Source: a bacterium (GTDB lineage: Bacteria; Cyanobacteriota; Sericytochromatia; S15B-MN24; UBA4093). Taken from it: a DNA stretch of 64,000 nt. Made by a program: the position numbers and the translations under genes. This document shows, one piece after another, positions 17,671 to 40,438 of this stretch. The stretch lies in NCBI GenBank assembly GCA_017744355.1, contig JAGIBK010000001.1, positions 771,694 through 835,693 of the forward strand. Direction: 5' to 3'. Within the stretch, counting starts at the first letter, position 1, and every line of letters begins with the position of its first letter. The notes beneath the pieces are model-generated. The model was not told where the DNA came from and did no database searches. It saw only the letters and a list, made by a program, of their open reading frames with translations.

Positions 17671-17682
17671 GTGAACGCCTCT

Positions 17683-21231: not shown

Positions 21232-21244
21232 AGGGTTTCTCCGT

Positions 21245-24200: not shown

Positions 24201-25456
24201 ACATCCAGCTTGACGCCATCGAATGCCATTCCCGCCAGCGACTCAGGCGCCTGATACAAGAGGCTTTGCGGATCCCCGAACAGGCTCAGGTGCATGCAGC
24301 CTTCCAGGGTGGGGCGCTGGTTGGTCAGGGTATCGCTCGAGCGCTTACCGGCTTGCCAGTCGAAAACCTTGAGGGTCCGATCCTGCGTCTCAGGCTTCGA
24401 AACCAGAACGGTTTGAGGGCTAAGGGCACGGTGGTAGATACGGTGGCGGTGCGCGAACTGCAAGGTCTCGGCAAGCACGCGAACGATGCGAATCCGCTCG
24501 CCCATATCGAGCTTGTCCAGATGCTCGCGCAGAAAGAAGTCGAGACGCTGCGCGTCGGGGTCGTGCTCGAACAGCACGGCCGGTCCCCGCTCGTGCTCGG
24601 TGAAATCGCTGGCCTTGAGAATTCCTGGGTAACTGATCCCGTCGAAAAGCAGGAACTCGCGCTCAGCCGCCTGTCTCCGCTCCACCCGCGAGAGTTCCGA
24701 TGCCTGCAAGGCATTTGGATAAAGGCGGACGCGTCGTAAGACCTTCGGCATGGCGACGTGGTGGGCCGCCCAGTCTTGGTAGGCATCGGTCTCGAGCAAC
24801 AGCTGATCCAGAAGGTAATCGCCGATGCGGCGGCTGCGCTGCGACGGCCGGATCCCCGCCTGGTCCATGGCGCGGGCGAAAGCCCGAGAAACCTCCGCCT
24901 CAAGCGCCCAATGGGCGGGACTTGGCAGGCCCGTTCGGCTATCGACCTCGCCCTTGAGCACCTCCATGATGCTCGGGCGCCCATCGCGCTGGGCCTCGGC
25001 CCGCAAAAATACGCTCGTTCGCCCGGTCTCCGTCAGTTCGCAGCGGAGATCCGGCGCCGACAGGAAGATCACCGGATCGACATAGGGGATGCGAACCTTC
25101 TTGAGCGCCGTTTGGCGAGAGAGGAGGCTCTTGAGCTTCTTCGACTTGCGGTCGGCCAAGAGCAACGGGTTGTCATCCGCCCGGGCTTTGCCGTCTAGAG
25201 ACCAGGTCCATGTACCGCCGTCCCCTTGAAGCAGGCCGGGGCGACTCTTGATCTCGACCAGGAATACCTTGTAGCGGGAGACCACGAGGAGGTCTACCTC
25301 GTTGAGGCTGCCGTCCTCGGCGATGAACTCGAAGTTGCTCCACGCTCGGAACGGTTCGCCATCTGGAAGTCGTTCACGGATGTAGGCCAACGCCTCGCGT
25401 TCCCAGGGGAACTCGGACTCAGAAACGACCGTCCATCGGCTGTTAGAGTTGCTCAT
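21245..25456 (-). CDS. pglW: BREX serine/threonine kinase PglW (N-terminal NERD/PD-(D/E)xK-like domain + kinase)
   Basis: 1403 aa. Hanks-type kinase catalytic loop HRDIKPDNIAIG. The N-terminus carries the NERD-like motif (EVDLLVV...LVEIKS). It is the first gene of the type 2 BREX operon. Confidence 0.85.
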   Translation of the reverse strand: MSNSNSRWTVVSESEFPWEREALAYIRERLPDGEPFRAWSNFEFIAEDGSLNEVDLLVVSRYKVFLVEIKSRPGLLQGDGGTWTWSLDGKARADDNPLLLADRKSKKLKSLLSRQTALKKVRIPYVDPVIFLSAPDLRCELTETGRTSVFLRAEAQRDGRPSIMEVLKGEVDSRTGLPSPAHWALEAEVSRAFARAMDQAGIRPSQRSRRIGDYLLDQLLLETDAYQDWAAHHVAMPKVLRRVRLYPNALQASELSRVERRQAAEREFLLFDGISYPGILKASDFTEHERGPAVLFEHDPDAQRLDFFLREHLDKLDMGERIRIVRVLAETLQFAHRHRIYHRALSPQTVLVSKPETQDRTLKVFDWQAGKRSSDTLTNQRPTLEGCMHLSLFGDPQSLLYQAPESLAGMAFDGVKLDVFSLGAIAYHVFSGRPPASSLHELQTKCATGNGLRIEDALDGASMELTDLIQFSTSPAVDLRLGSVDEFLDLLYQLEEAITAPDPEAVANPLEAKPGDKLEGGFVVKRPLGKGATSVALWVERDGKEGVLKIALDPAQNDRIRQEGELLKGLRHQHLVALNEVLEISGHAALHLTQSGAGETMAQRLRDEGRLSMDLLERFGEELLLAVAYLEAQGISHRDIKPDNIAIGETRNGRRTLVLFDFSLSGTPVENLRAGTPPYLDPFLRRRTPPRWDLYAERFAAGVTLYEMATGVLPTWGDGQSDPGSLAVEVSLDANLFDPSVREDLADFFAKALHSDYRRRFENAEQMLKAWRRVFEQVDKPTVTTDHDGGFDLDRAIASATLDSPLASLGLSPRILSSLDRLGAATVRQVIALPRIRLYRNKGIGNKTIKDVRDLAERLAKRFPEAVDAEVGASSEDIKTDPRSWSVDRLSRRLVHDRLDDVEIPVLRAILGLDERIGAWLPLGDVAERLAVSRATVESVLERARKRWDDTWMTALRKDVGDILERHGGIMTGEELAAAILTQRGSISEEPVRTRLAVAAIRAALEVETVREKAQVVLYRGKAHLFLAATGDLSPAFADSASARAQYAERLGEKADELAAADPLLTPQRVLEELQAVPVPEAMAKLTPERCLLLARSASRLACLSSRMELYPRGMGADRALRLGAGAIVGPKELTVKQVQDRVMSRYPEAAPLPGRPQLDELIKAAGVEMEWDHVALDGRGAYATRIHLVGASSSTLHRLSTASAHENLPSDEILDARAFETRLERAVTDRRFLLLAIEPKYLLRAEAEITKRFEVHRVSFESLLVRKLRSAAQAVGAKWEVVVSADGTPRDSNAWRNLRGLVKRAMGEVEQELSTSSTPVLMVENALIARYDHMELLERLRDDCARSDSGAPGYLVLIASDDQSTAPKLERQAVPLITASEWVRIPHAWLENRHRSTLVPTP

Positions 25457-26025: not shown

Positions 26026-27159
26026 TCAAGCGGGTTTTTCAATCTCAGGGAAGCTGCTTAATGTCAACAGTCGCGCCCGGATATCCTTCGACGAGGCGGT
26101 CAGATCCACTGTGGCGAAGCGAATCTGGTGGCCCTGGATTACGACGCTTTCGTCCACACTGGCCCCTGCCGAAGGATGCAGCAACATGCCGAAGGCCTGG
26201 TCGGCCATAGGGTCACCTCGATCCACCTGGGACCGCAGATAAGCGTAGATCTGGTAGAGGTATCCGCTTCGCAGAGTTGCATCGCTGTACCATCCCTTCG
26301 CCAAGATGGTCGTGAACTTGGTGTCGATGACAATGCGTCGGTTCGTCGGCACGTGCTCCAGGATCACATCGGTCCGCATGGCAGGCAGGATGGCATCGAT
26401 TCCAGGGGTCTTGGCTTCGATGGCCCACCCCAGCGGGGCGCCCGTCCGCACCCGCCACCCCTGAGGAGTGAGCGTCACAGCGTAGAAGCCCCCGACGGCC
26501 TTCTCAAAAAGGCGGCGCACCCAAGTCTCCTCGCGCTCGGGCTGAAGCATGGCGTTAGGGCCCGCCGCCTCGGTGGGTAACGCCAGATCAAAGGCCAGTT
26601 TGGCCGCAGCTACCATGAATCGATCGGCGGTGTCGTTGCGCCCGAAGCGATCGGCGCTGATCTGGGCCCGGGTCGGAGGATTGCCGGACACCCCCATCGC
26701 TCGCAGGTCGCCCGCCATGGAGCGACAGCGGTGCGCCAATTCTGGGCGCCGAACCAGTCGGGCGATCTTCTCCAGGGCGGCTCGGACAAAACGGTTGCGC
26801 GGCGTATCGACCGTCAACTCGTCGAAATGGCAGGCCACCAGCCCCCGGGACAGAAGTTGCCGCCGCTCGGTGCCGATCAGGTCGATCCGACCTCGAACCC
26901 GGTTCAAGACGGCGTCCCGCGATTGGTAGCCATACGTGAGCTGACGGCGCTGCCGCTGTTCGACCGCCTGAGCCAGGATCTCCGCGACCAGGCCCGGCAA
27001 GTCCTCCAGGTCGTCCTCCTGACCGAGCGAACCATCGCCCCGAGTTCGATAGAGCTCCGAAGCGTAGAGCATCAGCAGCCAGAGGTTGCGCACCGGGATG
27101 CGGCCGATGAATCCGGCCGCATCCGAAGCTATCTCCTGCGCCGCCAAGGAGCTGCTCAT
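26026..27159 (-). CDS. mcrC: Type IV restriction endonuclease subunit McrC
   Basis: The N-terminal IPVRNLWLLMLYA matches the McrC IPIRNLYYMLTYA region. C-terminal PD-(D/E)xK core VIDTKFT and YLYQIYAYL follow the E. coli McrC pattern. 4-bp overlap with mcrB. Confidence 0.8.
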   Translation of the reverse strand: MSSSLAAQEIASDAAGFIGRIPVRNLWLLMLYASELYRTRGDGSLGQEDDLEDLPGLVAEILAQAVEQRQRRQLTYGYQSRDAVLNRVRGRIDLIGTERRQLLSRGLVACHFDELTVDTPRNRFVRAALEKIARLVRRPELAHRCRSMAGDLRAMGVSGNPPTRAQISADRFGRNDTADRFMVAAAKLAFDLALPTEAAGPNAMLQPEREETWVRRLFEKAVGGFYAVTLTPQGWRVRTGAPLGWAIEAKTPGIDAILPAMRTDVILEHVPTNRRIVIDTKFTTILAKGWYSDATLRSGYLYQIYAYLRSQVDRGDPMADQAFGMLLHPSAGASVDESVVIQGHQIRFATVDLTASSKDIRARLLTLSSFPEIEKPA

Positions 27160-29408
27160 TCCCAGTCCTTCAGCAGCAGCTCGCGGGCCTTTTTGGCCTC
27201 GGCGGGCGAGTCGAACCAGTACTCCTCCAACAACGGTCCAATCTCGGTCTCGACGACCTGGCGGAACCAGGAGCGGGTCTCACCCGGTTCGAGGGGGTAC
27301 GGGGGCGTCACGTAGCTATGTCCAACGCGGAACTGCTTGCCCAGCCGGGCATCCCCGGCGATGGTCGCATTGCAGACTTCTAGCCGCGCCTCGATGTCGT
27401 TCGCTAGGTCGGCCTCGAGCCCGCAGTGTTGGGTGACCCAGTCGCGCCACGCCGGACCCAGGCGCGGCTCCAGATCCGCGAAGGCGAAGCGACGCCTCAG
27501 GGCCAGATCGACCAGTGCCAGTGAGCGGTCGGCGATGTTCATCGTGCCGATCACGTGGAGGTTTTCCGGGATATGGACGGGGCGGCGTACCCCATCTGCA
27601 TCGGGATAGCAGAGCTCGAGCGCCTCGCTGGGCGTACGTTTACCGGCCTCCAGTAGCGTTAGCAACTCGCCGAAGATCTGCGCGGGGTTGCCGCGGTTGA
27701 TCTCCTCGATGACCACGACAAAGCGTGACATTGGAGCCTTGGCTGCCGCCTTGATGGCTTCCATGAAGATGCCGTCGGCCAGGGAAAGTTTGCCGTCGCC
27801 CGTGGGGCGCCAGCCGCGCACGAAGTCCTCGTAGGACAGGTTCGGATGGAACTGCACCGCTCGAACCTTGCTCTCGTCCTTCTGGCCGATCAGGGAAAAG
27901 GCCAGGCGCTTGGCCAGCCAGGTCTTGCCCGTACCGGGCGGGCCCTGGAGGATCAGGTTCTTCTTGGTCCGTAGTCGCACGAGCAGCTGGTCAAGCTCCT
28001 TCCGGGTGAGGAAGCAGCCCTCCTGCAGCACGTCGTCGATCGAGTAGGGCACCAAGGACTCGGCCTTCTGCACGAGTCCGGGATCTTCATCCTCGGATTC
28101 GTCGGTGGGGTCCGTGGATGGCTGCGATGGAGTCGTCGCGCTGGGGTCCTTGTAATGCCAGGCCGACAGTGAGAGCTCCGGAAAGGAATGGGCCGGGTAC
28201 GAGGGCTCCTGGAAACGTGGGATCAGGGCGTCCATGATCGCCAGGTAGTCGGTGGCGTTACAGAGGCCCTTCGGGCCATGCCGCTCGATGGGCACGCCGA
28301 GCTTCTTGGTGATGTAGAGCTTGGAGCCGCTGTCGAGGCTGAGAAACGACCAAGGTCGGATCCAGTACAATCCGAAGGTGAGGTTCCAGGCCACCAGTGG
28401 GCGTCCGTTGGCATGGTCAAAGGCCAGGGAGAAGCGCGCACGAGCTTCCTCATCGTCCGATTCCGCGAAAGCCAGCGCGGCGGCAAACAGCGCCCAGAGC
28501 GAATCGATGTGGTCCGGGGTGCGGGCACTCTCCCTGGGAAAGTACCAGGACTTTAGGTTGTTCAGTACGGGTATGCCCTCGAAGGATTCCGGGATCGGCT
28601 CCTCGACGCCCAGGAACTGGCCCAGTTCCTTCATGATGATGCGCCGATTTGCATCAGTGATGCCCCGATTGAACAACCCCATGACCGTGAACGGGCAGAT
28701 ATCTCTCAGGAAGCCCGTCGTGCCGTCGGGATACTCGTCTTGCGACAGATGGCCCAGGCCTTCGACGTGCTGGGCGATGCCTTGAATGGCTTCGAGCAGC
28801 GGCTTGCGATCGTCCCGATATGCCAGCAGCTTGTCGGCGATCGCCTCGTAGAACTTCGTCCACCCAAAGCGCTTCGCCTCCGGCGCCTGGGTCCCGAACC
28901 GCTCTCGCCAGAACGGTGCGTTGCAGAAGCGGGCGTAGTCCTGCGTATCGCCCTCGAAGGCGAACGCGATCAAGCCGTCGGTCATCCAGTCGCCGGCCTG
29001 CACTCGCCAGATGGTCGCCCGGTGGGTGTAGAAGTACCACTCTCGGGCCGGGGTGACCGGCATCCAGTCCACTCGCACCCGCTGGCCGTCGTTCAAGTTC
29101 TCGACGATCGTTCCAATGGCCTTGATGGCCATCACCGAGACGGACAGACCACGATTGTCGAAGGGAAGCCCGTGTTTGCGGACGTAGGACGATTTGATGG
29201 CGATCCGGTCGCCGGGCCGCATCGACCTGACGAGCTCGAGATACTTGTCATCGTAGCCGTTCTCCCAGACGCCTTCCGCCAGGAACCGCGCCGTGTGGTC
29301 ATCCGTGTCGTTGTAAAAGGCACCGACGAACCAGGCTGTCGGGTGCTTCACCGACTCCACGGTAGCGGTGGCAAGGGACGATGGGCTCAGCTGTTCTTCT
29401 GCGTTCAC
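27156..29408 (-). CDS. mcrB: McrB-family GTP-dependent AAA+ subunit with long N-terminal DNA-recognition extension (750 aa)
   Basis: Walker A LILQGPPGTGKTW. Walker B VVVIEEINRGN. McrB signature IGTMNIADRS. About 430 aa N-terminal region of unassigned fold precedes the GTPase. Confidence 0.8.
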   Translation of the reverse strand: MNAEEQLSPSSLATATVESVKHPTAWFVGAFYNDTDDHTARFLAEGVWENGYDDKYLELVRSMRPGDRIAIKSSYVRKHGLPFDNRGLSVSVMAIKAIGTIVENLNDGQRVRVDWMPVTPAREWYFYTHRATIWRVQAGDWMTDGLIAFAFEGDTQDYARFCNAPFWRERFGTQAPEAKRFGWTKFYEAIADKLLAYRDDRKPLLEAIQGIAQHVEGLGHLSQDEYPDGTTGFLRDICPFTVMGLFNRGITDANRRIIMKELGQFLGVEEPIPESFEGIPVLNNLKSWYFPRESARTPDHIDSLWALFAAALAFAESDDEEARARFSLAFDHANGRPLVAWNLTFGLYWIRPWSFLSLDSGSKLYITKKLGVPIERHGPKGLCNATDYLAIMDALIPRFQEPSYPAHSFPELSLSAWHYKDPSATTPSQPSTDPTDESEDEDPGLVQKAESLVPYSIDDVLQEGCFLTRKELDQLLVRLRTKKNLILQGPPGTGKTWLAKRLAFSLIGQKDESKVRAVQFHPNLSYEDFVRGWRPTGDGKLSLADGIFMEAIKAAAKAPMSRFVVVIEEINRGNPAQIFGELLTLLEAGKRTPSEALELCYPDADGVRRPVHIPENLHVIGTMNIADRSLALVDLALRRRFAFADLEPRLGPAWRDWVTQHCGLEADLANDIEARLEVCNATIAGDARLGKQFRVGHSYVTPPYPLEPGETRSWFRQVVETEIGPLLEEYWFDSPAEAKKARELLLKDWE

Positions 29409-29495: not shown

Positions 29496-30923
29496 TCAGT
29501 CAGGTTCCCTCTCTGTGTTCTGCCCCCAGAATGCCAGGTCATGGTCCTCCAGGCCCCTGCGATAGAGATCCCAGGCGAGTCGCTCGATGACCTCACGCAT
29601 CGCCAGGCGATCTCGCCAGCGCGAGGGGATCGCCTCGACACCGTAGTAGGCTCCAGCCAGCTGGCCCGCAATCGCCGCCGTCGTGTCGGCATCGTGACCC
29701 AGGTTCACGGCCAGCAGGACCGTATCCTCGAAGCTCTCCGCGCGATCGAAGGCCCAGAGTGCCGCTTCAAGAGACTCCACAACGTAGCCGGTTCCTCGGA
29801 TCTCCGGAGGCTGCTTGCGCTTGAAGGAGCCCTGGGCAATCGTTGCGATTTCCGCGCAGAGCGGATGCGCCTGGTAGTAACCGTCGATGGGGCTGAAGAC
29901 AGGCGCCAGCAGATCCTCCTTCCCGTACCCCTTGAGGGCACCAATCAGGAGCCCGCTGAAGAAGCGGCAAGCATCCACGGCCGTCGTGGCACCGTGTGTC
30001 ACGCGCGAACTCTCGCCGGCCAGGTGGATGGCCGTGGCAGGGTCCTGGTACAGGAACAGCGGCAGTGGTGCGAGACGCATCAGGGAGCCGTTGCCCGCCT
30101 TGCGGGGGTCCGTGGATCCGGCGACTGGATTGCCCGCGGACTCGAAGGCCTCGAGAGCCTCCCGGACGGTCACGCCGATATCGAAGCACCGCCCCGTGCT
30201 ACTCAGGTATCCTTCGCGGTACCAGCGCAGATAGCGCTTCATCTGTGACTCGGGTTGGAACCCATCTTCGATCAAGCTCTCGGCCAGGCACAGGGCCATC
30301 GAGGTGTCATCCGTCCACTGCCCGGGCGCGAGGCGGAACGGGCCGCCACCGACCATGTCGACGACCGGCTCGAACCGCCCGGGAGTCTGGAATTCGACCG
30401 TCGTGCCCAGCGCATCGCCGACCGCGAGTCCCAAGAGGGCGCCGAGGAATCTTCCCGAGAGATCCGAGGGCCGCTCTCGGTCACGATCAGGACGGCTCCC
30501 CATGAACATGGGGTCACCAAGCCCGGGATTTTGCAGACGCTCTCGCAGCGCATGATACTGGGAGCGCCACTCTGCCTCGGGGGGGAGGTCGCCCGTATGG
30601 TGGGTCCCGCGGCAAGTGTGGTAAAGCGTCAACCACACGTCGAGGATCCCACCGATCCAGGTGCCGGTACGGGTGTAGATCTGCGTTCGGGCGCGGGCCA
30701 GTTCGCTGATGTCACCGTAGCCGAACTCCGTGGCCAGGTCGTAACCCCGGATGGCGAGGTGGAGGACCCAGTATTCATCGAACGTGGGGTCCAGGGGCAG
30801 GGCCGAGAGATCACCGTGGAAGAATGAGGCCATGGCTGGCCGGATCCGGTCGAGGAAGTCGTCGACTGGATATAGATAGACTCGGCGGCGATCCCGGGTG
30901 GTGCGCATTACGGGCTCCTTCAC
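29496..30923 (-). CDS. ADP-ribosylglycohydrolase (DraG/ARH family) with about 150-aa N-terminal domain of unknown function
   Basis: ARH motifs GALLGLAVGDALG, GQWTDDTSMALCL, GNGSLMRLAP and GHDADTTAAIAGQLAG. The N-terminal 150 aa have no recognisable similarity. The GTG start overlaps the upstream exonuclease stop (GTGA). Confidence 0.75.
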   Translation of the reverse strand: MKEPVMRTTRDRRRVYLYPVDDFLDRIRPAMASFFHGDLSALPLDPTFDEYWVLHLAIRGYDLATEFGYGDISELARARTQIYTRTGTWIGGILDVWLTLYHTCRGTHHTGDLPPEAEWRSQYHALRERLQNPGLGDPMFMGSRPDRDRERPSDLSGRFLGALLGLAVGDALGTTVEFQTPGRFEPVVDMVGGGPFRLAPGQWTDDTSMALCLAESLIEDGFQPESQMKRYLRWYREGYLSSTGRCFDIGVTVREALEAFESAGNPVAGSTDPRKAGNGSLMRLAPLPLFLYQDPATAIHLAGESSRVTHGATTAVDACRFFSGLLIGALKGYGKEDLLAPVFSPIDGYYQAHPLCAEIATIAQGSFKRKQPPEIRGTGYVVESLEAALWAFDRAESFEDTVLLAVNLGHDADTTAAIAGQLAGAYYGVEAIPSRWRDRLAMREVIERLAWDLYRRGLEDHDLAFWGQNTEREPD

Positions 30924-31681
30924 GTTTCCTGAGTTTGCACCGGAAGGCGCACGCTGTCCTCACGAGCACCCGGGCGCGGCAAGCCATGCGCGATCCTGAC
31001 CAGCGCCGCAATTTGCTTGGGCGATAGATAACCCTTGAGCTGATACTGCCCCTCGCAGGATGCCAGGAAGGAGTTGCCCGGCAGGGCCTTTTGAGCCTCG
31101 TCCAGGAGCAAGGGAAACAGGGTCCCCGCCCGGGCCCGTTCCACCAGTTCGGGAGCCTCGGCGAGAAAGCGAGATAGGACCTGGGCGGTGGCCCTGACGT
31201 CACCCAGCGCGTCGTGTGCCTCATGAGGAAGCCCATAGTAGGCGGTAAGGGTTTCAAGGCGCGCATCGGCAGTTAGTTCCCGGGCCTGGAGGTGGACCCG
31301 GGCCACATGGACGGTGTCGATGAAGTCCGTCCGACGCGGAACCTCAAGGCCGAGTCGACCCTCGCAGGCGCGCAGGAAGTCCAGGTCGAAGCCGATGTTG
31401 TGGCCCACCACAACGGGTAGCTCCGAGAGGGTGCCCACGTAGTCGGCGAGCATGCCGAAGGCCTGCCGTGGCTCCATCGCATGGGTGAAGTCCTCGAGGG
31501 TCCTCCCCTGGATGGCGAGCGCTTCCTCAGTGACCGTCTCGGGTCGCTGAGGCCGAATCAGGGTCGCGAAAGCCGCCAACTCTCGCAGCGAGTCATCCAG
31601 CAGCAGAGCCGCCACTTGGGTGGGCTCGTGCTCGGTCGGGTCCAGCCCCGTCGTCTCGAAGTCGAGAACAAGATACTTCAT
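30920..31681 (-). CDS. DEDDh 3'-5' exonuclease (DnaQ/Pol III epsilon-like) with C-terminal extension
   Basis: Exo I YLVLDFETTGLDP. Exo II VVGHNIGFDLDFL. Exo III HDALGDVRA. An ATG (MKYLV) at about 31681 overlaps the AddA-like stop by 4 bp. The track ORF extends to a GTG at 31756. Confidence 0.75.
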   Translation of the reverse strand: MKYLVLDFETTGLDPTEHEPTQVAALLLDDSLRELAAFATLIRPQRPETVTEEALAIQGRTLEDFTHAMEPRQAFGMLADYVGTLSELPVVVGHNIGFDLDFLRACEGRLGLEVPRRTDFIDTVHVARVHLQARELTADARLETLTAYYGLPHEAHDALGDVRATAQVLSRFLAEAPELVERARAGTLFPLLLDEAQKALPGNSFLASCEGQYQLKGYLSPKQIAALVRIAHGLPRPGAREDSVRLPVQTQET

Positions 31682-34600
31682 GTGCTGGTCCCTGCCGCCT
31701 GGGAGGTCGGCGCCGAGGCGGTGATCGCGCTGGGGCACAGCAGGACATAGGGGCACCCGGGACAGGTCCTCGGTGAAGGAAGCGCCTCGAACCGGCCTTC
31801 TCCGATGGATTGCACGATCGCGGCGGCCTGGGCGCCTGCCGCCTCAAGTCGATCGGGCGTGAACTCGTGCAGCGTCCCGTGCTGCAAATAGGCCAACAGG
31901 CCTCGAGGCTTGCCGACCGCCCGCGTGTAGACCCAGAGCTGCATGGCATGGTGATCGGGGTCCATCACCCGGTCGGTCTTGTAGTCCAGGATGAAGTCGG
32001 GACCGATGGCGTCCACCACCCCCTTCAGCTCCAGGCCCCCGAGACTTAGCGTGATGGGACGTTCCCGCTCGGAGATGGCCTCCCGCACCTCCCGGAACAC
32101 CTCTTCGCTCCGGAAGGAGCGGGCAAAGCGCAAGGCCGTCTCGACGAGATCGGGAGCGAGGTCGGAGACATGCGGGGCGAGCGCCGCCGCCTCGTCGAGG
32201 TCGAGTTCCAGGGCCAGGTGTGCGGCCGTACCCACCCGGTTCGCATGGGGGACCGGCACCGGCAGGGGCGGCGCAAGCTCCGTCGCATCATCCGAGGGCA
32301 CTGCCCCGTGGGGACCGACCTCCTCGCTACCGGGATGGCCATCGACGTAGCGATAGGCAAAGGCTCTCGGACACCGTGCAAACACAGCCAGCGCCGTGAC
32401 CGGCAGCTCGCTCAGCACCGTCCCCAGGGGCTGCTCGAACCAGCGGGCAGGAAGCGGGACCGGATCCAACGGTCCAGGCAACGGGGGCCGCTCGTCACCG
32501 GGCTGCGGCTGGACCTCGTCGATAACTAGCCCGGCCTCTTCGAGACCCGGCGCCAGAAAAGCCAGGGCGCCCTTGACCGGGTCGGGGGCCGTCAGCAGCA
32601 GGCGATCGCGGACCCGAGTCAGGGCCACGTAGAAAATCCGGCGCTCCTCCGCCTCCTCGCGTTCCTGCACGCGTCGTTTGTGGAGCTTCAACCGCAGGGG
32701 CTCCTGCGAATTACCCTCCTCGTCCTTGAACTTCAGCCCCACGCCCAGCTCCGCATCGAAGCGGATCCGGGTCCGATCGGCCGGCTTGTCGGCCGTGAGG
32801 TTGGGCACCACGACCACCGGCCATTCCAGACCCTTGGCGGCATGGATGGTCATGAGCAGCACCGCGTTGCCTGCCTCCAGAGCGGGTCGATCGAGCTCGA
32901 TCTCGGCCTCGCTCAGGCGTCGGATGCGGCGTACGACCGTCAAGACGTCCTGCGCGCCACGCTCGAGCCGACGTACCTGGTCGATCAAGCCGCTCCAGTC
33001 CGCCAGGCGCCGGTGCGCGCCCGGCATCCCTGCCAGCACCGCACTGTAGCCGGTGAGCCGATCCGCCAGTTGCAACAAGCGGCTGGGCGGCTCGCTGCGC
33101 TGGTCCAGGAGTTCCTGCAGAATGTCGCGCGCCGTCACCAGATCGGGCTCGCTTGATGCCTCCACCACCTGCCACCAGCTGCTCGCGCCGCGTGCGTCGG
33201 CCGCGCGATGCAGGACGGCATCCGAGACGGCGAAGAACGGGCTACGCAGGATCGCCACCAGGGCCTGGTCATCGCGCCGATCCGCCAGAAAGCGAAGCAG
33301 CGCGGTCCCGTCCAGTGCCTCGCGGGTGGCGAGCAGGTCGCTGCCTCGGGCCAGGGTTGTTGGTATGCCCTCCGCGGCCAGGGCCTCCTCGTAGATCGCC
33401 AGCGGCGCTCCCGTCCGGCACAGCACCGCGACATCCCCCCACCTCATCGGGCGCAGCTCGCCCGCGCCCTTGTCATGCAGGAGCAGACCTTCCTCATGCC
33501 AGGCCTTGAGGCGCCGGGCGATATGGCGAGCCTCAATGCGGCGTCTCGCCTCCACATCTCCGGCAGCCGCCTTGGGGACGTGAGCGGCCTCCAGGTGCGG
33601 CAGATCATGAGGGACACTTCGCTGACCCACGAGATCCTGGCGCAGACTTCCGAGCGACGGGCCACATACCCGGTTGATGATCTCGAGAAGCGGACCGTGC
33701 GTGCGGAAACTCTCCTTGAGGCTCACGCGATCGCCCCCGCGTCCGGCGATCGCCTCGGCCATCCGACCGAACACCGTCACGTCGGCACGGCGGAACCCGT
33801 AGATCGACTGCTTCTCGTCGCCCACGATCGTGAGAATCGCGCCCTCGGTGAGCAGGTTCAGCAGGCGGGCCTGGACCGGGTTGGTGTCCTGTACCTCGTC
33901 GAGCAGAAAAGCCCGCCAGCGACTCCAGTAGTAGGCAAGAACCTCGGGGTGCTCCAGGGCGCGCAGGGCATGGACCTCGAGATCGCCGAAGTCCAGTACC
34001 CGCTCCTGAGCCTTGGCCGCCGTGAGGTGGCCCCGGATCTGAGCGAAGGCCTGGCGCAAGGCCGGGACCATTTCCGCCAGCACGTCGTCGAGCGCGCCGG
34101 GCTCGAGCCACAACAACGACTCCTGGGACAGCAGGTCCCGAACCTCGCTCAGGGCCTTTTTGACCTCCTCGTATTGCTCGGGGTCCCAGCCCTTCTTGCT
34201 CCCGACATTGAGCTTGATGCCCAGCACCGGCGCGAAGTCCGGCCACGGTGCTCCGGCAGTCCGTCGTGCCAGGGCATCAGTCAGAGCCAGGGTTTCGACC
34301 CGCTGGGTTTCCCTGAGACCATCGCCCGCGCAGCGTCTCAGGGCACTCACGGCTTCTTGCCACGGGTCCGAGGTGATCAACCTGGCCACGAGGGATTCGC
34401 GTTCGGCAGACAGCACGGCGGGGAGATCAAGTGGATCCCTGGCCAGTGCCTCTTCGGCCGTCAGGGGATCGGCGCCGAAAGCCTCCATGGCGGCCCGCAG
34501 CAGGTCCGACGGAATTGAGTCCTGGATCTCGGCGGGCAGGCCAGCGATCGCTTCGTCTAACTGTTCCAACGCCCAGATGGGGCCCTCGGGCCGATCTTCC

Positions 34601-34950
34601 AGGATGGTGAAATCGGCCGGAACCCCGGCCGCATCGGGGTGCTCGCGGCAGATCCGGGCGGCGAGGGCGTGCATGGTCATGATGGGCGCCGCCTCCAGCT
34701 CCACGGCCACCTGAGGCGCGAAGGGTGGCTGAGCAGCGGCGACGTCCTTGCGAATCCGGGATCGCATTTCGGCTGCGGCCATGTCCGTGAACGTGGTGGC
34801 CACGATCTCGAGCGGCGAGAGGCCATGCGTCCGCAACAGCTGCAGGTAGCGCGCCGAGAGCATGTGTGTCTTGCCGGTACCGGCTCCCGCCGTGACGCAC
34901 ACATCCCCGGGTGCCTCGACGGCACGTTGCTGGTCGAGCGTGAGTGGCAT
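31678..34950 (-). CDS. AddA/AdnB-like helicase-nuclease: UvrD-family SF1 helicase + C-terminal RecB-family nuclease with 4-Cys cluster
   Basis: Motif I VTAGAGTGKTHML. 1090 aa. C-terminal RecB nuclease motif ILDYKTDR. Cysteines (FARCPRAF...CPGCPYVLLC) suggest an Fe-S staple. Confidence 0.8.
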   Translation of the reverse strand: MPLTLDQQRAVEAPGDVCVTAGAGTGKTHMLSARYLQLLRTHGLSPLEIVATTFTDMAAAEMRSRIRKDVAAAQPPFAPQVAVELEAAPIMTMHALAARICREHPDAAGVPADFTILEDRPEGPIWALEQLDEAIAGLPAEIQDSIPSDLLRAAMEAFGADPLTAEEALARDPLDLPAVLSAERESLVARLITSDPWQEAVSALRRCAGDGLRETQRVETLALTDALARRTAGAPWPDFAPVLGIKLNVGSKKGWDPEQYEEVKKALSEVRDLLSQESLLWLEPGALDDVLAEMVPALRQAFAQIRGHLTAAKAQERVLDFGDLEVHALRALEHPEVLAYYWSRWRAFLLDEVQDTNPVQARLLNLLTEGAILTIVGDEKQSIYGFRRADVTVFGRMAEAIAGRGGDRVSLKESFRTHGPLLEIINRVCGPSLGSLRQDLVGQRSVPHDLPHLEAAHVPKAAAGDVEARRRIEARHIARRLKAWHEEGLLLHDKGAGELRPMRWGDVAVLCRTGAPLAIYEEALAAEGIPTTLARGSDLLATREALDGTALLRFLADRRDDQALVAILRSPFFAVSDAVLHRAADARGASSWWQVVEASSEPDLVTARDILQELLDQRSEPPSRLLQLADRLTGYSAVLAGMPGAHRRLADWSGLIDQVRRLERGAQDVLTVVRRIRRLSEAEIELDRPALEAGNAVLLMTIHAAKGLEWPVVVVPNLTADKPADRTRIRFDAELGVGLKFKDEEGNSQEPLRLKLHKRRVQEREEAEERRIFYVALTRVRDRLLLTAPDPVKGALAFLAPGLEEAGLVIDEVQPQPGDERPPLPGPLDPVPLPARWFEQPLGTVLSELPVTALAVFARCPRAFAYRYVDGHPGSEEVGPHGAVPSDDATELAPPLPVPVPHANRVGTAAHLALELDLDEAAALAPHVSDLAPDLVETALRFARSFRSEEVFREVREAISERERPITLSLGGLELKGVVDAIGPDFILDYKTDRVMDPDHHAMQLWVYTRAVGKPRGLLAYLQHGTLHEFTPDRLEAAGAQAAAIVQSIGEGRFEALPSPRTCPGCPYVLLCPSAITASAPTSQAAGTST

Positions 34951-37569
34951 TCAGGCCTCCTTTCGCCCGAGTCGAGCGCCGGCCCGGCAAACCACCCCGT
35001 GCTCGCAGTACTCGCAAGCTGCCCGCTTGAGGTCAGGCGCAACGGGGAAGTGCCCTTCTTCCAGGTGGGCCTTCAACCGGCTCAAGAGCAGTTCCAGGGC
35101 CGGCTCGTCAACCTCGGCCCTGTGTCGCTTGGGCTTCGAGAGGGTGTAGTACGAGGCCTCCCGCACCGCCACGCCGGGGTACAGGGCCGGCGCCGCCGCC
35201 TCGATGTAGATGGGAAGTTGCAGGTCGATGGTGTTCTTGCGCGAGGCGTCCTGGGCCTTGCCGTAGATTGCGCTGCCGGCCTTGTAGTCGAGGATGACCA
35301 GCTCGCCACCAACGCGATCGATGCGGTCCACCTGCCCCTGGACCTTGAACCCCCTCCATTCCCCCTTGAAGTGGCCCTCGGTGGCGGCGATTTCGCCCCC
35401 CGCGTCGAGGAACCCCTCGTGCAGGACGGCGCGGCGCAGCACCGTCAGGTGCTCCTCCCGGCGGGCATCCCAGCCGGGAAGGTCGGACAGACGATATCCC
35501 AGCTCCGGAACGAGCTCGCCTTCGGCCTCCAGCATAGAGGCCTCGAGACGATCGAGCACGGATTGGCGCGGGTCGGTCGCTCCGATGGCCGCACGGCAGG
35601 CCAGCTCGAGGGTCTTGTGGTAGAGCAGCCCCCGGACCTGAGGCTCGATGCCCTCGATCGCCTCGTCAGGCTCCTTGATCCGCAGGACCTTTTGGGCATA
35701 CCAGCGGAAGGGACACTGCCCGAGGGATGAGAGCTGGCTGGCGCTAAAGGTTCGCCGGCGCCAGTCCACCGGGATCCCGGAGGTGCCGTCGTGAGGGTTG
35801 GCCTCCCGGAGCGAACCCGGCGCCTCCCGGCGGCGCTCGATGGCGAGCGCCATCCTGGCCCTCGCCAGCACGGCGTCTTCGTCCGCGTAGTCGGACAGGA
35901 TCTTGATCCGGCGTCCCTCCTCGGGGCTCGCGACCGGAACCTCGGGAGTTTCGAGCTTGATGCCGAGCCATCCGAAGGCCGGGCTGGGCAGGCGAGCTTT
36001 GCCCGCCTGGAGGCGAGAGCAGGTGAACGTCAGCGTCTCGGAGGCCACGGTGAGCAGCGAGTCGAACGTGAGCCGCTCCCGTCGGGCGGCAGACGTTGCG
36101 GTCTCGAGCGGAAGGCCGGCTGTCTCGAGGCGCTGGCGGGTGATGAAGTCCAGCACGGGATCGTCGTTCAGGCGCGCGGGAAGCTCGTCTTCCGCCGTCC
36201 CGATTACGAAAAGGTGCTTCACTCGTGCGCCAAAGAGCGCCAGCGGAGTATGCAGGCCCACGCCCCCCCGGGCGGGATGGGCCGGGGTCGTCAGGATGCT
36301 CAGGGCCTCCCGGACCTCCTGGAGGAACTCCGCCCGCGAGCGAGAAGAGGTATCTCGTTCGCCCAGAAGATCCAACGCTCGCGTGAACCGGCCCACGGCG
36401 ATCGTCTCGGCCGCCCAGTGGCGCGCACGCCGGACGATGCCCAGGCGCTGCAGCAGAACGCGCAGACGCTGGGCCCATTCCAATCCCGTGGCCGCCTCAG
36501 GCCAGACCAGTTCCTGGGTTGGCACCCCCAGCGCGGCCCACTCGTCGGGCCCATGGGGATGACTGGCTCGGGCCTCGAGACGCTTCTCGCCGTTGAGCGC
36601 CCGGCACAGCGGATGGCCCAGCAGTCGAAACGTGGGTTCGAAGGGAAGGTTTGTCTCGATCACCTCGGTGAGCAGACCCAGCCAGTGCCCGAAGCGAGTT
36701 TCTGAGAGCGGAATCTGGTACTCGGCATGGACCGGCACCCCATGTTCGGCGGCGATTGCGAGCACCAACGGTCCGTGGGCTGCATCGTCGCGGGCCGCGA
36801 TCGCGACCTCGGCGGGCGATGTCCCACCTAGCAGGAGCTCCTTGACATGGGCCAGCACGGCTCGTACCTCGGCCACCTGGTCCGCTAACTGCCAACCCCG
36901 CATTGTCGAGGGGCGCTGCGGCGCTTCCAGGTCGGCACGTTGCACCCGCCAGCCGGCTTGCTCAAACCGCTCGGCAAGGGCCACGTTCTCGTGAACCGCG
37001 TCGTGCTCACCTCCCGGTAGGATCAGGGCCGAGCCGGGAGCCGCCAACGCCAGCAGGAACGCTTCCTCATCGCGCCCCAGGCGCGGGTAACCGGTCACCA
37101 GCACCGACTGCCGCTTCACGGAGCCTTGAATCGCCAGCCAGTAGGTCTCGGCAGGATCATGGAGCCTCAGCTCACGAAGGCGAGCGAGGTAACCCTGGAC
37201 GAACCGAGCGACCTGCTGAACCCGGGGATCGTCGAATGCTGCAAGTTGTTCGAGGTCCAGTCCGGCGCGCAGCACCTCGGCCACGACGGGGGCCAGGCGG
37301 CGTGCGGTGCCAGCCGGGTCCGGGAACCCATGGGCAAGTGCGAGGTCACGCAGAAGGTGTGGCGCCGTGAGGGCATCGATGGCCGTCCGACCAGCGCGGG
37401 CGAGCAGACCCTGCGCCAGGCGTTGGAGGCTGACGTGTGGCACTCCGAGGGCCCGTGCGGCACGAGGATTGGGGGTCACGACCAGGCGACCAGGCACCAG
37501 GGCGGTTGCCTGAGGGTGCGGCGCCGATGTGAGGTAGAGGGTGGGGTTCGCCTCCCGTTCAGCCGTCAT
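34951..37569 (-). CDS. AddB-like subunit: degenerate helicase-like N-terminus + RecB-family nuclease with Fe-S cysteines
   Basis: 872 aa and no Walker A. C-terminal ILDYKAGSA nuclease motif. Cys pattern CPFRW...CEYCEHGVVC typical of the AddB iron staple. Directly abuts the AddA-like gene. Confidence 0.7.
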   Translation of the reverse strand: MTAEREANPTLYLTSAPHPQATALVPGRLVVTPNPRAARALGVPHVSLQRLAQGLLARAGRTAIDALTAPHLLRDLALAHGFPDPAGTARRLAPVVAEVLRAGLDLEQLAAFDDPRVQQVARFVQGYLARLRELRLHDPAETYWLAIQGSVKRQSVLVTGYPRLGRDEEAFLLALAAPGSALILPGGEHDAVHENVALAERFEQAGWRVQRADLEAPQRPSTMRGWQLADQVAEVRAVLAHVKELLLGGTSPAEVAIAARDDAAHGPLVLAIAAEHGVPVHAEYQIPLSETRFGHWLGLLTEVIETNLPFEPTFRLLGHPLCRALNGEKRLEARASHPHGPDEWAALGVPTQELVWPEAATGLEWAQRLRVLLQRLGIVRRARHWAAETIAVGRFTRALDLLGERDTSSRSRAEFLQEVREALSILTTPAHPARGGVGLHTPLALFGARVKHLFVIGTAEDELPARLNDDPVLDFITRQRLETAGLPLETATSAARRERLTFDSLLTVASETLTFTCSRLQAGKARLPSPAFGWLGIKLETPEVPVASPEEGRRIKILSDYADEDAVLARARMALAIERRREAPGSLREANPHDGTSGIPVDWRRRTFSASQLSSLGQCPFRWYAQKVLRIKEPDEAIEGIEPQVRGLLYHKTLELACRAAIGATDPRQSVLDRLEASMLEAEGELVPELGYRLSDLPGWDARREEHLTVLRRAVLHEGFLDAGGEIAATEGHFKGEWRGFKVQGQVDRIDRVGGELVILDYKAGSAIYGKAQDASRKNTIDLQLPIYIEAAAPALYPGVAVREASYYTLSKPKRHRAEVDEPALELLLSRLKAHLEEGHFPVAPDLKRAACEYCEHGVVCRAGARLGRKEA

Positions 37570-38207
37570 GGGTGCACCGGACGCTTCTGCGATGGGACCA
37601 CCGCCACCAGCTCGGACGGGGCCGCCACATAGAAGAGGGCGATATCGAGGTCCTGGGCCTCGCCCCGGACCAGATCCAAGGCGCTTTCTGTCATTCGCTC
37701 ATTGGCATCTCGTGCCGAATCGATCACCAGCATCGCCAGCTGCGGGATTGAGGCAGGCGCACGATGGGCAATCTCTTGACCCAGGGCATGCAGCTTCCTG
37801 AGGTCCTTGAGCACTTCCCCCGGGGATAGGCGTCCTTTGTCGCGCTCAGAGGCCTTGCTCTCCAGGGCCAGTAGCATCTGGCGCAGGGTATTGTCGCGGT
37901 TCCGGCGCCGCCAGTCGGCTTCGATGCCCTCGGCGAAAATGACCACATCCGGGATGGGCTCGAACCCTCCGCGGTAGCCCTCGGCCTTTCGCCGGTCGAG
38001 TTGCCGGAACAGCGTCGTCTTGGGACGCGGAATCCAGATCTTGACGTTCATTCCCAGCTGCTCGAGGGGAACCTGACCGTGCACGCGCAGTGCGTGGTAA
38101 ACCATCGCTTGGTAGTGCTGCTCCGAGCCGAGGACTGCGCAGCATTCCGTCGCGATAACCGGGAGAGCACGCTTTAAGGCTGTTAGTGCGTCTTTGGGCG
38201 TCTTCAT
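37566..38207 (-). CDS. Small PD-(D/E)xK-like hypothetical protein (213 aa)
   Basis: Candidate restriction-endonuclease-fold core (EPIPDVVIF ... LALESK). First structural gene downstream of the WYL regulator. 4-bp overlap with the AddB-like start. Confidence 0.35.
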   Translation of the reverse strand: MKTPKDALTALKRALPVIATECCAVLGSEQHYQAMVYHALRVHGQVPLEQLGMNVKIWIPRPKTTLFRQLDRRKAEGYRGGFEPIPDVVIFAEGIEADWRRRNRDNTLRQMLLALESKASERDKGRLSPGEVLKDLRKLHALGQEIAHRAPASIPQLAMLVIDSARDANERMTESALDLVRGEAQDLDIALFYVAAPSELVAVVPSQKRPVHP

Positions 38208-38258: not shown

Positions 38259-39263
38259 TTAAGTAACCATCGATTGCTTCTTGAATGGGTCAGGCTGGTT
38301 GACCTCCGTCGGCGCGAGTTCCGAGGCCATTCGGGCGATGGTGGCCTGAACCTCGGCAACCACAAAGTCGGGCTCGACCACCCGGGCCTGACCGCCGTAG
38401 GACAGAATCCTGCGCACGGCCCGCAAAGGAATGCTCTCCTTGATGGCCACCAGACGGCTGCCGTCAGGCGTCTCCTCAAGGACTCGCAGGCGCTGGGGAA
38501 CCCTCTGGAACCCCGAGGCCATCGACGCCGAGAGCCAGATCTGAAACTCAAAGGCTGGGACCTGATCCAGCGAGACTGGGGTATCGAGCACCTCGACAGC
38601 CGGGCTGGTCTTGGTGGAGCAGAAGCGATCCAGGCGGAATTCCCGGTTCTTGTGCCACTCCGTGCTGCCCTCGGCCTCGGGGCAGTGCGCATGGAGGTAC
38701 AGAAAGCCGTCCTGCCAGGTTAGATAGGCCCGGTCCACCAGGTACCGCTTGGGTTCGCGGTTCAGTGGACGATAGGTCAGGCGCATCATGCGGCCGGTCT
38801 GAATGCCATGCTGAAGGCTGTCGAGGACCTGCGCGTCGTAGGCCGTGTTGCCCGTCCTCAGGAGGCGACCGGTGTAGGGATCAGACAGGCCTTCGCGAAC
38901 CGAGGCAGGCACTCGCTCGAATAGCGTGCGAAGGCGCTCCGCTTCCGGCAACTTGAGATCCTCGAATAGCGCCACGGCGGTCTGCAGGGCCGCCGCTTCC
39001 TCGTTGTTGGCGAACAGCTCCAGGTGCCCCATGTCCAGCTCATAGGCCTGCTTGGTCAGCTTGTCGCCGGGGCCTAGCGGACGAAAGCCAATGCCCAGCT
39101 TGCGCAACGCCTTGACGTCGGCCGAGATTGAGGCTTCCGAGAGCCCGGCATCCGTCTCGTAGTCCGAAGACAGTTCCAGTAGGCGGCTGAGAACCTCACC
39201 CCGAAACAAGGGGCCAGTAAGCAGCATCTTGAGGATGTTCCAGCGGCGTTCGAACGCGTCCAT
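38259..39263 (-). CDS. WYL-domain transcriptional regulator (wHTH + WYL; BrxR/CapW-like)
   Basis: N-terminal HTH (ERRWNILKMLLTG...VLSRLLELS). Central WYL-type motif (YLVDRAYLTWQDGFLYLHAHC). The ATG at 39263 has a GAAGGGGG RBS. The track ORF extends to a TTG at 39329. Confidence 0.7.
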   Translation of the reverse strand: MDAFERRWNILKMLLTGPLFRGEVLSRLLELSSDYETDAGLSEASISADVKALRKLGIGFRPLGPGDKLTKQAYELDMGHLELFANNEEAAALQTAVALFEDLKLPEAERLRTLFERVPASVREGLSDPYTGRLLRTGNTAYDAQVLDSLQHGIQTGRMMRLTYRPLNREPKRYLVDRAYLTWQDGFLYLHAHCPEAEGSTEWHKNREFRLDRFCSTKTSPAVEVLDTPVSLDQVPAFEFQIWLSASMASGFQRVPQRLRVLEETPDGSRLVAIKESIPLRAVRRILSYGGQARVVEPDFVVAEVQATIARMASELAPTEVNQPDPFKKQSMVT

Positions 39264-39398
39264 CGCGCCCCCCTTCGACGAATTTGCATGAATTAGCTTG
39301 CTTGACCCATTCGTACCCCAACCGATCAAAACTAACCCTCGTTCGCTACCAAAACATCATGGCAACCGGAGTAGATTCGGTTTCGAGCGGAGGAATCA

Positions 39399-40367
39399 AT
39401 GCTAGACGTGAAGGTCAAGTCGGACACGATCTGGGTCGGCGAGCACTTCTCGGTCGACTTTCAGCGGACCCTGCGCATTCCTGACGACGGGATCGTCTAT
39501 CCGCTACCGCCCGGCCTGAGTCGCTTTCCCGTGCGCAGGGTCGACGACTACCTCGACCGAGTGCCGCCTGCCTGGCGTGAGCACGGTGGCGTCTTCATTC
39601 CCATGTACCAGCGAGAGGCGCTCTGGCTCTGCTTCGGCGGCTCCTACTGGAAGCCCCACGCGGTTAAGATCGCCATCGGCAAGATCAACGTGGTGACCGG
39701 TAGGGGCTGGGCTCAGCCCCTCGAGGAATCCCCTCAGGATTACCTCGTCTGCCCGGATCAGCCCTGGCTCGATGGGATCAATGCCGGGGAGGGGATGATT
39801 CGCCAGTTCGTCGCCATGCCGCTCGGCCAGGGGTACACCGTCGAGGGACAGCTCACCGGCGCCGAGAAACATGGAGGCATCCAGCTCATCGCCTTCGCCC
39901 CGAAGCCGGGGCGTTTTCCCGACGAGCCGCCGCGGGTCGAGACCTGCGATTACCTGGTTTGCGAGAGCGCGGCCGCACCGAGCATGGGCCTAGCGGCCGG
40001 CGGCAAGATGACCCAGAAGATCTATGCGGACGAGTACGGTCTCGACACCTGGGACCAGGAGAACTACGGGCGGGTGTTCATCCACATCGTCGACAGCATG
40101 GTGTTCCGGGAGATCACAGGGGAAGAACCGCCTCCCACGCCCGTCACGGCGAAGACCTACGCCCAATATCACCTGCCCTGGTTCTCCCTCTATGACGAAC
40201 TGAAGCAGGACCTACCGCCCTCGGGCATCCTCAAGGGGGTGAAGTCTGTCAAACAGGTCGACGTCGAGAAGGGCCACCAACCGCAGCAAGACGACAGCTC
40301 GGTGCCGGTGGACAATATCGTCAAGCTAGGCAAGAAGCCAAACACGGTCCGGGACGGCGAGTGGTAG
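39399..40367 (+). CDS. Hypothetical protein (322 aa), divergent from the WYL regulator
   Basis: Long ORF. No domain recognised by eye. Confidence 0.35.
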   Translation: MLDVKVKSDTIWVGEHFSVDFQRTLRIPDDGIVYPLPPGLSRFPVRRVDDYLDRVPPAWREHGGVFIPMYQREALWLCFGGSYWKPHAVKIAIGKINVVTGRGWAQPLEESPQDYLVCPDQPWLDGINAGEGMIRQFVAMPLGQGYTVEGQLTGAEKHGGIQLIAFAPKPGRFPDEPPRVETCDYLVCESAAAPSMGLAAGGKMTQKIYADEYGLDTWDQENYGRVFIHIVDSMVFREITGEEPPPTPVTAKTYAQYHLPWFSLYDELKQDLPPSGILKGVKSVKQVDVEKGHQPQQDDSSVPVDNIVKLGKKPNTVRDGEW

Positions 40368-40438
40368 CCGTGCTGCCGCTGGGTGTCCCGATTGTCTTCC
40401 CGAGCCCTCAATTCAACTCACAAAGGAGTTCCCGCGCC

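Follow-up and report, generated by a model that had tools for sequence, protein, structure and literature searches.

A previously undescribed acidic helical domain joined to an ADP-ribosylglycohydrolase in a nuclease operon of a cyanobacterial defense island

We analyzed a stretch of 64,000 nucleotides (nt; hereafter, the window) from contig JAGIBK010000001.1 (positions 771,694 to 835,693, forward strand; assembly GCA_017744355.1) of a bacterium from the UBA4093 lineage of Sericytochromatia (Cyanobacteriota), centering on a minus-strand gene that encodes an ADP-ribosylglycohydrolase (ARH) with an additional N-terminal domain (N-domain). This gene is the last one in an operon headed by a WYL-domain regulator, and the window is a defense island that also carries McrBC and a complete type 2 bacteriophage exclusion (BREX) system (Table 1). 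The N-domain belongs to a previously undescribed, unannotated family of acidic all-alpha domains of about 120 amino acids (aa). This family is the most valuable, new element of the locus; the kind of system that is centered on such a hydrolase had already been predicted by Iyer et al. 2022.

A two-domain ADP-ribosylglycohydrolase

The open reading frame (ORF), 475 codons long when counted from a GTG, is confirmed, and most of it encodes a hydrolase. Residues 161-435 match the Pfam family ADP_ribosyl_GH (PF03747) over its entire length (profile positions 1-287 of 287; 277.4 bits against a cut-off of 26.2), and the nearest solved structures are those of a Thermus enzyme (2cwc; E=1.7e-81) and Serratia Tri1 (6dre; E=4e-73). 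When aligned with 103 close homologs, the protein retains 110 of the 113 columns that show at least 97% conservation, and the binuclear-metal motifs (GDA, TDDT, GNGS, DxDTT) are all present, as D170, T204-D205-D206-T207, G277-N278-G279-S280 and D411-A-D413-T414-T415. Thus, the claim of an earlier, sequence-only reading of this DNA that the C-terminal part is an ARH with all metal motifs holds, and the full Pfam match, the similarity to 2cwc and Tri1 and the retention of the conserved columns identify an intact hydrolase domain of the Tri1/DraG type. Among the NCBIfam models, that of the ADP-ribosylarginine hydrolase Tri1 (NF041672) scores best, aligned at profile positions 67-359 of 361 with 323.8 bits, short of the cut-off of 490; the DraG model (TIGR02662) yields 165.3 bits against a cut-off of 337. 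The domain is predicted to be active as a hydrolase, most likely, on an arginine-type ADP-ribosyl linkage. Most of the ARH relatives are standalone proteins of 305-320 aa, and among the 120 best ones, only P0002 (457 aa, from a Logan assembly) has the N-domain, which, as the sequence-only reading implied, is no common accessory of metabolic DraG homologs.

The NCBI record for the same gene (P0001; 335 aa, 100% identical) begins at M141 and leaves the N-domain out. Were this record correct, the N-terminal 140 codons would be untranslated and the real gene would encode the 335-aa ARH only, an exceedingly improbable reading that we consider close to refuted. The GC content of third codon positions in frame across these codons (0.73-0.87) equals that of the hydrolase part; P0002 is 49% identical over the N-terminal region, with family-specific motifs included and the blocks GYDLA.EFGYGD and LQNP..DP.F shared; a family hidden Markov model (HMM) built from 114 members, without the query and its four nearest relatives, matches the query at E=5e-23 (database size 1.84 billion proteins); and a perfect AAGGAG Shine-Dalgarno sequence stands 6 nt ahead of an ATG at 30908. 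Furthermore, RefSeq cuts the same domain short in a Microvirga plasmid gene too. From the composition of the region, the identity to P0002, the leave-out HMM match and the Shine-Dalgarno sequence, we conclude that the N-terminal ~140 codons are translated, as far as sequence evidence can tell.

Because the Shine-Dalgarno sequence is placed ahead of ATG 30908 and the alignment with P0002 starts at the Met of this codon, the true start likely is this ATG rather than the GTG, which gives a protein of 470 aa. The GTGA overlap, in which the sequence-only reading saw translational coupling to the DEDDh exonuclease gene, is present in the sequence (GTG 30923-30921 on the DEDDh stop TGA 30922-30920); the start that is used, however, probably is not the one in the overlap. 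With the ATG, the ARH gene starts 12 nt past the DEDDh stop, and the two genes are still tightly coupled.

A family of acidic all-alpha domains

Searches of Pfam (even at E<=10), PHROGs, NCBIfam, PADLOC and PDB sequences yielded no match to the N-domain. A word-indexed search of proteins that used only this domain came back empty as well, so that an exhaustive HMMER search was needed; run with a two-sequence profile, it retrieved 128 cluster representatives at E<=1e-3, of which 4 are repeat-protein artefacts, leaving 124 credible members. The earlier verdict that the N-terminal region is unassignable is, therefore, correct with respect to the curated libraries and incorrect in that the region is a member of a sizeable, uncharacterized family with many architectures. 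The members share the motifs GDF..(I/L)P, (D/N)GY.LA..LG.GD and TG.W.G.A.ELW.CLF.E.RR.RH, with one invariant Arg (R105) and near-invariant G60, Y61, W89, W97 and L100, and they are acidic, with a median isoelectric point of 5.0 and a median net charge of -6. The query, apart from being matched by the leave-out profile, carries GDF..P, (D/N)GY.LA, TG.W.G, ELW..LF and the invariant Arg.

The AlphaFold2 model of the N-domain, obtained with a 44-sequence alignment, is an arrangement of seven helices with a mean predicted local distance difference test score (pLDDT) of 94.6 and a predicted template modeling score of 0.87. The N-domain is an independently folding unit, the ends of which are adjacent in the model because a short strand at the N-terminus is paired with one at the C-terminus. 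The sequence-only reading had named two checks on this domain, a Foldseek comparison and a search for the same domain on other effectors. The former gave no match in PDB (best E=1.8) or BFVD (best E=0.8), and the latter turned up the domain together with PglX, nucleases, Macro, NUDIX, DSP-phosphatase, DUF488, Ada-Zn and, in both orders, ARH.

The domain is under-represented in protein databases because gene callers have cut it off in at least two public annotations (P0001 and WP_349774739.1). The family is also nearly missing from phage collections, with no matches in INPHARED and a single IMG/VR contig. Scans of the DNA of GTDB genomes, JGI metagenomes and IMG/VR with narrow patterns derived from the query and P0002, which exclude only close relatives, revealed no further ARH genes in which the N-domain comes first; for such scans, the alignment A3 was too diverse, and the subgroup A4 (ELW[LIC]CLF[FY]E) was usable. 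Profile comparisons showed no relationship between the N-domain and the phosphatase-ARH fusion P0073, the DUF6508-ARH fusion P0013 or the unassigned C-terminal region of P0106. A combined full-length alignment (A6), in which domain fragments were misplaced onto the ARH region, was discarded.

Architectures and genomic contexts of the family

Standalone proteins of 100-200 aa make up about half of the representatives. Some of the domains are located inside long methyltransferases, between an FFTPxxVVxF motif and the S-adenosylmethionine (SAM) motif I (DPACGS); the spacing between these motifs is ~20 residues in the PglX of the window and ~160 in P0139. PADLOC identifies the long proteins with the insert as PglX of BREX type 1 loci that also contain BrxB, BrxC, PglZ and BrxL, and in these PglX proteins, the domain HMM reaches E-values down to 1e-54 (L009-L014); the type 2 PglX of the window itself lacks the helical domain. 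The insert-bearing BREX type 1 loci (L009, L010, L012-L014, L028, L030, L031) come from Planctomycetes, Myxococcota, Chloroflexi and Cyanobacteria, and in several of them, PglX is apparently split into two ORFs.

The domain is also fused to REase-ARP/PDDEXK_13, on either side, to NUDIX, HNH and PDDEXK_5, to Macro (L020), to a DSP-phosphatase (PTP-SAK), to a DUF488-type N-terminal domain (P0122; a weak match, under the Pfam cut-off), and to an Ada metal-binding domain (Ada_Zn_binding; L047 5992-6690, Microvirga terrae plasmid NZ_CP102847.1). In P0162, the order is reversed, with the ARH first and the domain at the C-terminus; because this ARH is only 46% identical to that of the query, the fusion is an independent one. 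The Ada-fused member adjoins genes for 3'-5' exonucleases and an imuA-imuB-dnaE2-type mutagenesis cassette; the RefSeq protein WP_349774739.1 starts at 6115, inside the domain of this L047 gene.

In 10 loci (L008, L011, L015-L018, L021-L023, L041), a conserved cassette was detected that consists of a Rep-like gene (divergent), PDDEXK_13/REase-ARP, DUF2958 and, as the last gene, a standalone member of the domain family. The hosts of this cassette are Alphaproteobacteria, plus one metagenomic contig, and an integrase is often present, with a tyrosine integrase frequently flanking the cassette, which looks like the cargo of small integrative elements in Alphaproteobacteria.

The operon and the defense island

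Table 1. Features of the ARH gene, its operon and the adjacent defense systems (window coordinates)
Feature	Coordinates	Strand	Evidence
WYL + WCX one-component regulator, operon head	38259..39329	-	Pfam WYL and WCX, PADLOC WYL
p213, no family match, ATGA overlap with the AddB-like gene	37566..38207	-	
AddB-like protein, C-terminal PD-(D/E)XK nuclease	34951..37569	-	Pfam PDDEXK_1 8.8e-32
AddA/RecB-like UvrD helicase, C-terminal PD-(D/E)XK nuclease	31678..34950	-	Pfam
DEDDh (RNase_T / DnaQ-like) 3'-5' exonuclease	30920..31756	-	Pfam RNase_T 8.9e-26, PADLOC DEDDh
ARH with N-domain, last operon gene	29496..30923	-	
Start region of the ARH gene	30906..30923	-	GTG/TGA overlap, AAGGAG 30920-30915, probable start ATG 30908-30906
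N-domain, residues 6-140 of the listed ORF, member of the acidic all-alpha family	30504..30908	-	Family profile search, leave-out HMM, AlphaFold2 model
Linker, ~residues 141-156, conserved RP(D/E)R..ERPSDL, contains NCBI start M141	30456..30503	-	
ADP-ribosylglycohydrolase domain, residues 157-458, Tri1/DraG type, catalytic motifs intact	29550..30455	-	Pfam, PDB, NCBIfam, conserved columns
McrB (27156-29408) and McrC (26026-27159)	26026..29408	-	Pfam, NCBIfam; McrC over equivalog cut-off
Complete BREX type 2 / Pgl: BrxHI-like helicase, BrxD, PglZ, PglY, PglX (with DUF7008), PglW	7960-25456	-	

The ARH gene lies, as claimed, inside a nuclease operon, and that operon is itself part of the defense island, with McrBC and BREX type 2 as neighbors. 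The operon recognized at the outset, DEDDh plus ARH, is only the end of a longer one that runs from the WYL regulator through p213, the AddB-like, the AddA-like and the DEDDh genes to ARH. From p213 to ARH, successive genes are overlapping, abutting or separated by 12 nt, and the gap between the WYL gene and p213 is 51 nt. The listed DEDDh ORF overlaps the AddA-like gene by 79 nt, and hence its true start probably is later. The AddA-like and AddB-like proteins score 239 against 708 and 54 against 487, respectively, with the NCBIfam models, that is, below the equivalog level, but possess the AddAB domain architecture. The only PDB sequence match of the WYL protein is PafBC, a weak one (E=0.004).

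None of the libraries, Pfam (even at E<=10), PADLOC, NCBIfam, PHROGs and PDB sequences, returned a match for p213, and the single-sequence AlphaFold2 model (pLDDT 39) is unusable. The possibility that p213 is DarT or another ADP-ribosyltransferase (ART) was rejected, given the lack of a match in any library; a possible nuclease-like motif, D87...E116-x-K118, was read by eye only. No ART was detected among the nine neighboring proteins with Pfam, PADLOC or NCBIfam, from which very divergent ARTs could escape, and no phosphatase among the operon genes with Pfam.

The McrB gene is located 87 nt downstream of the ARH stop, with no terminator-like site in the gap; McrBC is possibly co-transcribed with ARH, and its membership in the unit is uncertain. 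In the BREX system, PglW matches the PADLOC PglW profile with 1528 bits. At the locus, no tRNA gene, notable promoter-like site or operator-like inverted repeat was found. Past the WYL gene, the window contains further candidate defense genes, namely, one that combines HSDR_N_2 (type I restriction) with many ankyrin repeats (42254-44617, plus strand) and a ResIII/SNF2-type helicase gene (47502-50441, plus strand). Nearer to the operon, there are a gene for a 322-aa protein without a family match, divergent from the WYL gene (39399-40367, plus strand), and a 181-codon ORF rich in Pro, Ser and Arg that probably is not a gene (40383-40928, plus strand). A homolog of the rifamycin-inactivating phosphotransferase Rph (53575-56193, minus strand) reaches 1462 bits against an NCBIfam cut-off of 999.

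Related loci

Only one other locus, L001, was found to contain an ARH gene with the N-domain first. It encodes orthologs of the WYL regulator (71% identity), the AddB-like (43%), AddA-like (48%) and DEDDh (56%) proteins and the ARH (63%), in a different gene order, and the p213 ortholog is not present. In L001, the WYL ortholog is beside the ARH, and genes for a vWA protein and a DUF4177 protein are directly upstream of the ARH, so that the WYL, vWA and DUF4177 genes part the ARH from AddBA; the DEDDh gene is elsewhere and divergent. The coupling of DEDDh and ARH genes, which the sequence-only reading pointed out, is not conserved in L001: the same genes are present, but rearranged. A different McrBC-type pair is located directly downstream of the ARH in L001, and an SbcCD-like pair is nearby.

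In three loci that otherwise differ, an ARH of this clade is followed or flanked by a McrBC-type pair (window 26026-29408, minus strand; L001 11449-16037; L045 1020-4341). These pairs are only distantly related to one another, and their proximity to ARH could reflect either packing in defense islands or a real association. Elsewhere, a close relative of the ARH in Deferrisoma is encoded together with ARPP-1 and PTP-SAK, beside Fic and PIN genes; an ARH-phosphatase fusion adjoins BrxL and McrBC; and one close ARH homolog is found in an uninformative setting. A metagenome scan based on AddB yielded only three short loci with AddB-like orthologs (L033, L034, L035). The contigs of L034 and L035 end inside AddA, so only L033, the AddA-like ortholog of which is 69% identical, extends past the AddA match.

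Functional implications and alternative explanations

Given that the domain is joined to unrelated partners and is inserted into methyltransferases, is acidic, and has adjacent termini that suit insertion, it probably is a portable regulatory or targeting module, not a catalytic one, that gates or directs the attached enzyme by binding either a partner protein or a small ligand. General DNA binding was down-weighted as the role of the domain because the family is acidic.

A computational survey (Iyer et al. 2022, Viruses 14:1977, section 3.8; PMC9503650) predicted 'ARG-centric' systems, in which an ARH without a coupled transferase is combined with a WYL or Nudix regulator (>42%), a rhodanese-phosphatase-type phosphatase (~55%), vWA or other chaperones, effectors of the restriction endonuclease (REase) fold with helicases, and ARPP, and which were proposed to undo phage-inflicted ADP-ribosylation. 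The operon fits this template because it encodes an ARH without an ART, a WYL regulator, and REases with a helicase. The recurrence of the gene set in L001, the conflict contexts of close ARH relatives and the defense island around the operon also speak for such a system. The reading that we favor, and to which we give about an even chance, is that the two-module protein, a Tri1/DraG-type hydrolase joined to the N-domain via a short conserved linker, functions in a WYL-regulated operon and that this unit is an instance of the ARG-centric conflict systems. The WYL protein, acting as a repressor, would hold the operon off until a ligand derived from the infection is sensed; the hydrolase, judging by its family membership, would strip ADP-ribose placed on host macromolecules by an ART of the invader; the REase-fold helicase-nuclease and the exonuclease would, as effectors, degrade the invading nucleic acid; and the N-domain may direct or gate the attached enzyme by binding a partner or a ligand.

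Several observations weigh against this scheme. The linkage of the ARH to the AddAB-like and DEDDh genes is seen in two loci that might have a phylogenetic relationship, in which case common descent, and not selection, could account for it. In L033, the homology to the AddA-like protein extends only to residue ~813 (of 1090), and the remaining 1.5 kb of the 12.8-kb contig contain neither a DEDDh nor an ARH gene. The published ARG-centric model is itself a prediction, and the phosphatase found in ~55% of such systems is missing from the window. The role of the N-domain is deduced from architecture alone, and the invariant Arg might just as well belong, with the acidic and His positions that are conserved, to a catalytic or ligand site. 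Some of the standalone domain genes are found among housekeeping genes, and P0162 (L003 8001-9317) is encoded among sensor kinase and TctC genes, with no evident defense island.

The genes of the operon could, instead, respond to DNA damage: a PafBC-like WYL protein would turn on AddAB-type resection and a proofreading-type exonuclease, and the ARH would allow resection to proceed by clearing DNA ends, bases or repair proteins of ADP-ribose. Human ARH3 can remove ADP-ribose from DNA ends; the AddA/AddB-like architecture is typical of enzymes that resect double-strand breaks; and this explanation is also in accord with the weak PafBC match of the WYL protein, the Ada-fused family member beside the exonuclease genes and the imuA-imuB-dnaE2-type cassette, and the SbcCD-like pair near the ARH in L001. 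We nevertheless consider a repair function unlikely. The AddA/AddB proteins are far below all NCBIfam equivalog cut-offs (239 against 708 for AddA), and their orthologs, at 43-48% identity, have diverged faster than those of the ARH (63%) and the WYL protein (71%); the operon has McrBC/BREX on one side and other defense-like genes on the other; the ARH is nearest to the arginine-specific Tri1 and the 2cwc enzyme, not to ARH3; and the acidity of the N-domain family speaks against general DNA binding.

Two further explanations detach the ARH from the nucleases, and we consider both of them improbable. The ARH might be functionally unlinked to the upstream genes, either an independent single-gene module or a partner of the downstream McrBC, and merely packed in the island. 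The separation of ARH from AddBA and from DEDDh in L001, the McrBC-type pairs at ARH in three loci and the prevalence of standalone relatives are compatible with this possibility; it does not sit well with the 12-nt gap, the Shine-Dalgarno sequence overlapping the DEDDh stop, the overlapping or abutting genes up to p213, the recurrence of all five gene families in L001 despite rearrangement, or the distant relationship between the McrBC pairs. Marginally less probable still, the protein might be an orphan Tri1-like immunity protein against interbacterial ADP-ribosylating toxins, with the N-domain as a toxin-binding plug and with neighbors that are unrelated island cargo. The extension of Tri1 reportedly blocks the active site of Tre1, and it is exactly this extension that is replaced here, the match to the Tri1 model covering positions 67-359 only; Tri1 is, moreover, the best NCBIfam model, and its structure 6dre matches strongly. 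The score is, however, under the equivalog cut-off, neither a toxin gene nor a secretion gene was detected in the operon, and the presence of the domain in PglX, nucleases, Macro, NUDIX and Ada-Zn proteins and in the REase-ARP cassette is ill-suited to a toxin-specific plug.

Apart from these alternatives, a more far-reaching and rather unlikely possibility is that the N-domain is a signal-receiving switch common to BREX type 1 PglX, REase-ARP and HNH nucleases, and several unrelated ADP-ribose-processing folds, which would sense a shared infection cue and gate the respective enzyme; the cue could be a phage protein, a molecule derived from nicotinamide adenine dinucleotide or ADP-ribose, or ADP-ribosylation of the invariant arginine of the domain. 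If so, a subset of BREX and ARG-centric systems would read one signal, which would provide a handle on the control of BREX. For the mechanism of BREX, a shared accessory module beside the SAM pocket of PglX is a concrete lead. More generally, the family, which is absent from Pfam, PHROGs and PDB and yet is modeled at very high confidence, connects nucleases and the BREX methyltransferase with enzymes of ADP-ribose removal or processing (ARH, Macro, NUDIX, DSP-phosphatase). Host systems that undo phage-inflicted ADP-ribosylation have so far been only predicted, and the locus described here is a compact, clonable example that extends from regulator to effector.

Comparison with known systems

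The AddA-like and AddB-like pair resembles AddAB/AdnAB in having a large subunit with a UvrD motor and a PD-(D/E)XK nuclease, a second subunit with a C-terminal PD-(D/E)XK nuclease, and abutting genes; it differs in being far under the equivalog thresholds and co-operonic with WYL, DEDDh and ARH genes within a defense island. With PglX of BREX type 1, encoded in loci with BrxB, BrxC, PglZ and BrxL, the ARH protein shares the N-domain family, but in the window, the domain is N-terminal to a hydrolase rather than within a methyltransferase. DraG belongs to the same Pfam family and has the same binuclear-metal motifs; the ARH of the window, however, scores 165.3 against 337 with the DraG model, and there are no DraT or nif genes in the window.

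Tri1 is the best-scoring named family, with the same hydrolase fold and motifs, and it, too, has an N-terminal appendage. The protein from the window nonetheless remains below the Tri1 cut-off (323.8 against 490), the Tri1 extension (profile positions 1-66) is replaced in it by an unrelated helical domain of 135 aa, and no Tre1-like toxin or secretion gene was detected near the ARH. DarG proper is a macrodomain protein, not an ARH. The validated defense system DarHTG combines the toxin DarT with an ARH-like antitoxin, DarG3, and a UvrD-like helicase, DarH (NAR 2026, PMC13069673), and thus resembles the operon in joining an ARH-fold hydrolase to a UvrD-family helicase. The differences are that no DarT was detected in the window with PADLOC or Pfam, that DarG3 resembles the eukaryotic and archaeal ARH3-type enzymes whereas the ARH studied here is Tri1/DraG-like, and that the helicase of the window has a RecB-type nuclease and an AddB-like partner. 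The sequence-only reading held that ARH enzymes are rare in immunity; they are less rare than this reading suggested, as this clade is the core of the ARG-centric systems (PMC9503650), and an ARH-type antitoxin with a UvrD-like helicase has been validated in DarHTG (PMC13069673).

In relation to the ARG-centric systems themselves, the window lacks a gene for a phosphatase, ARPP or chaperone, and its effector is a full AddAB-like two-subunit helicase-nuclease with a DEDDh exonuclease. The helical domain was not found in the text of Iyer et al. 2022 (PMC9503650); that study was, as the Pfam name REase-ARP shows, also the source for the curation of the domain's nuclease partner. The shared features are an ARH without a genomically coupled ART or sirtuin, a regulator with WYL and WCX domains, and PDDEXK_1 in both the AddA-like and the AddB-like protein, with a UvrD motor in the former. 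The likeness extends to the vWA protein of the sister locus L001 and, among close homologs of the ARH, to fused or adjacent rhodanese-phosphatase-type phosphatases and ARPP.

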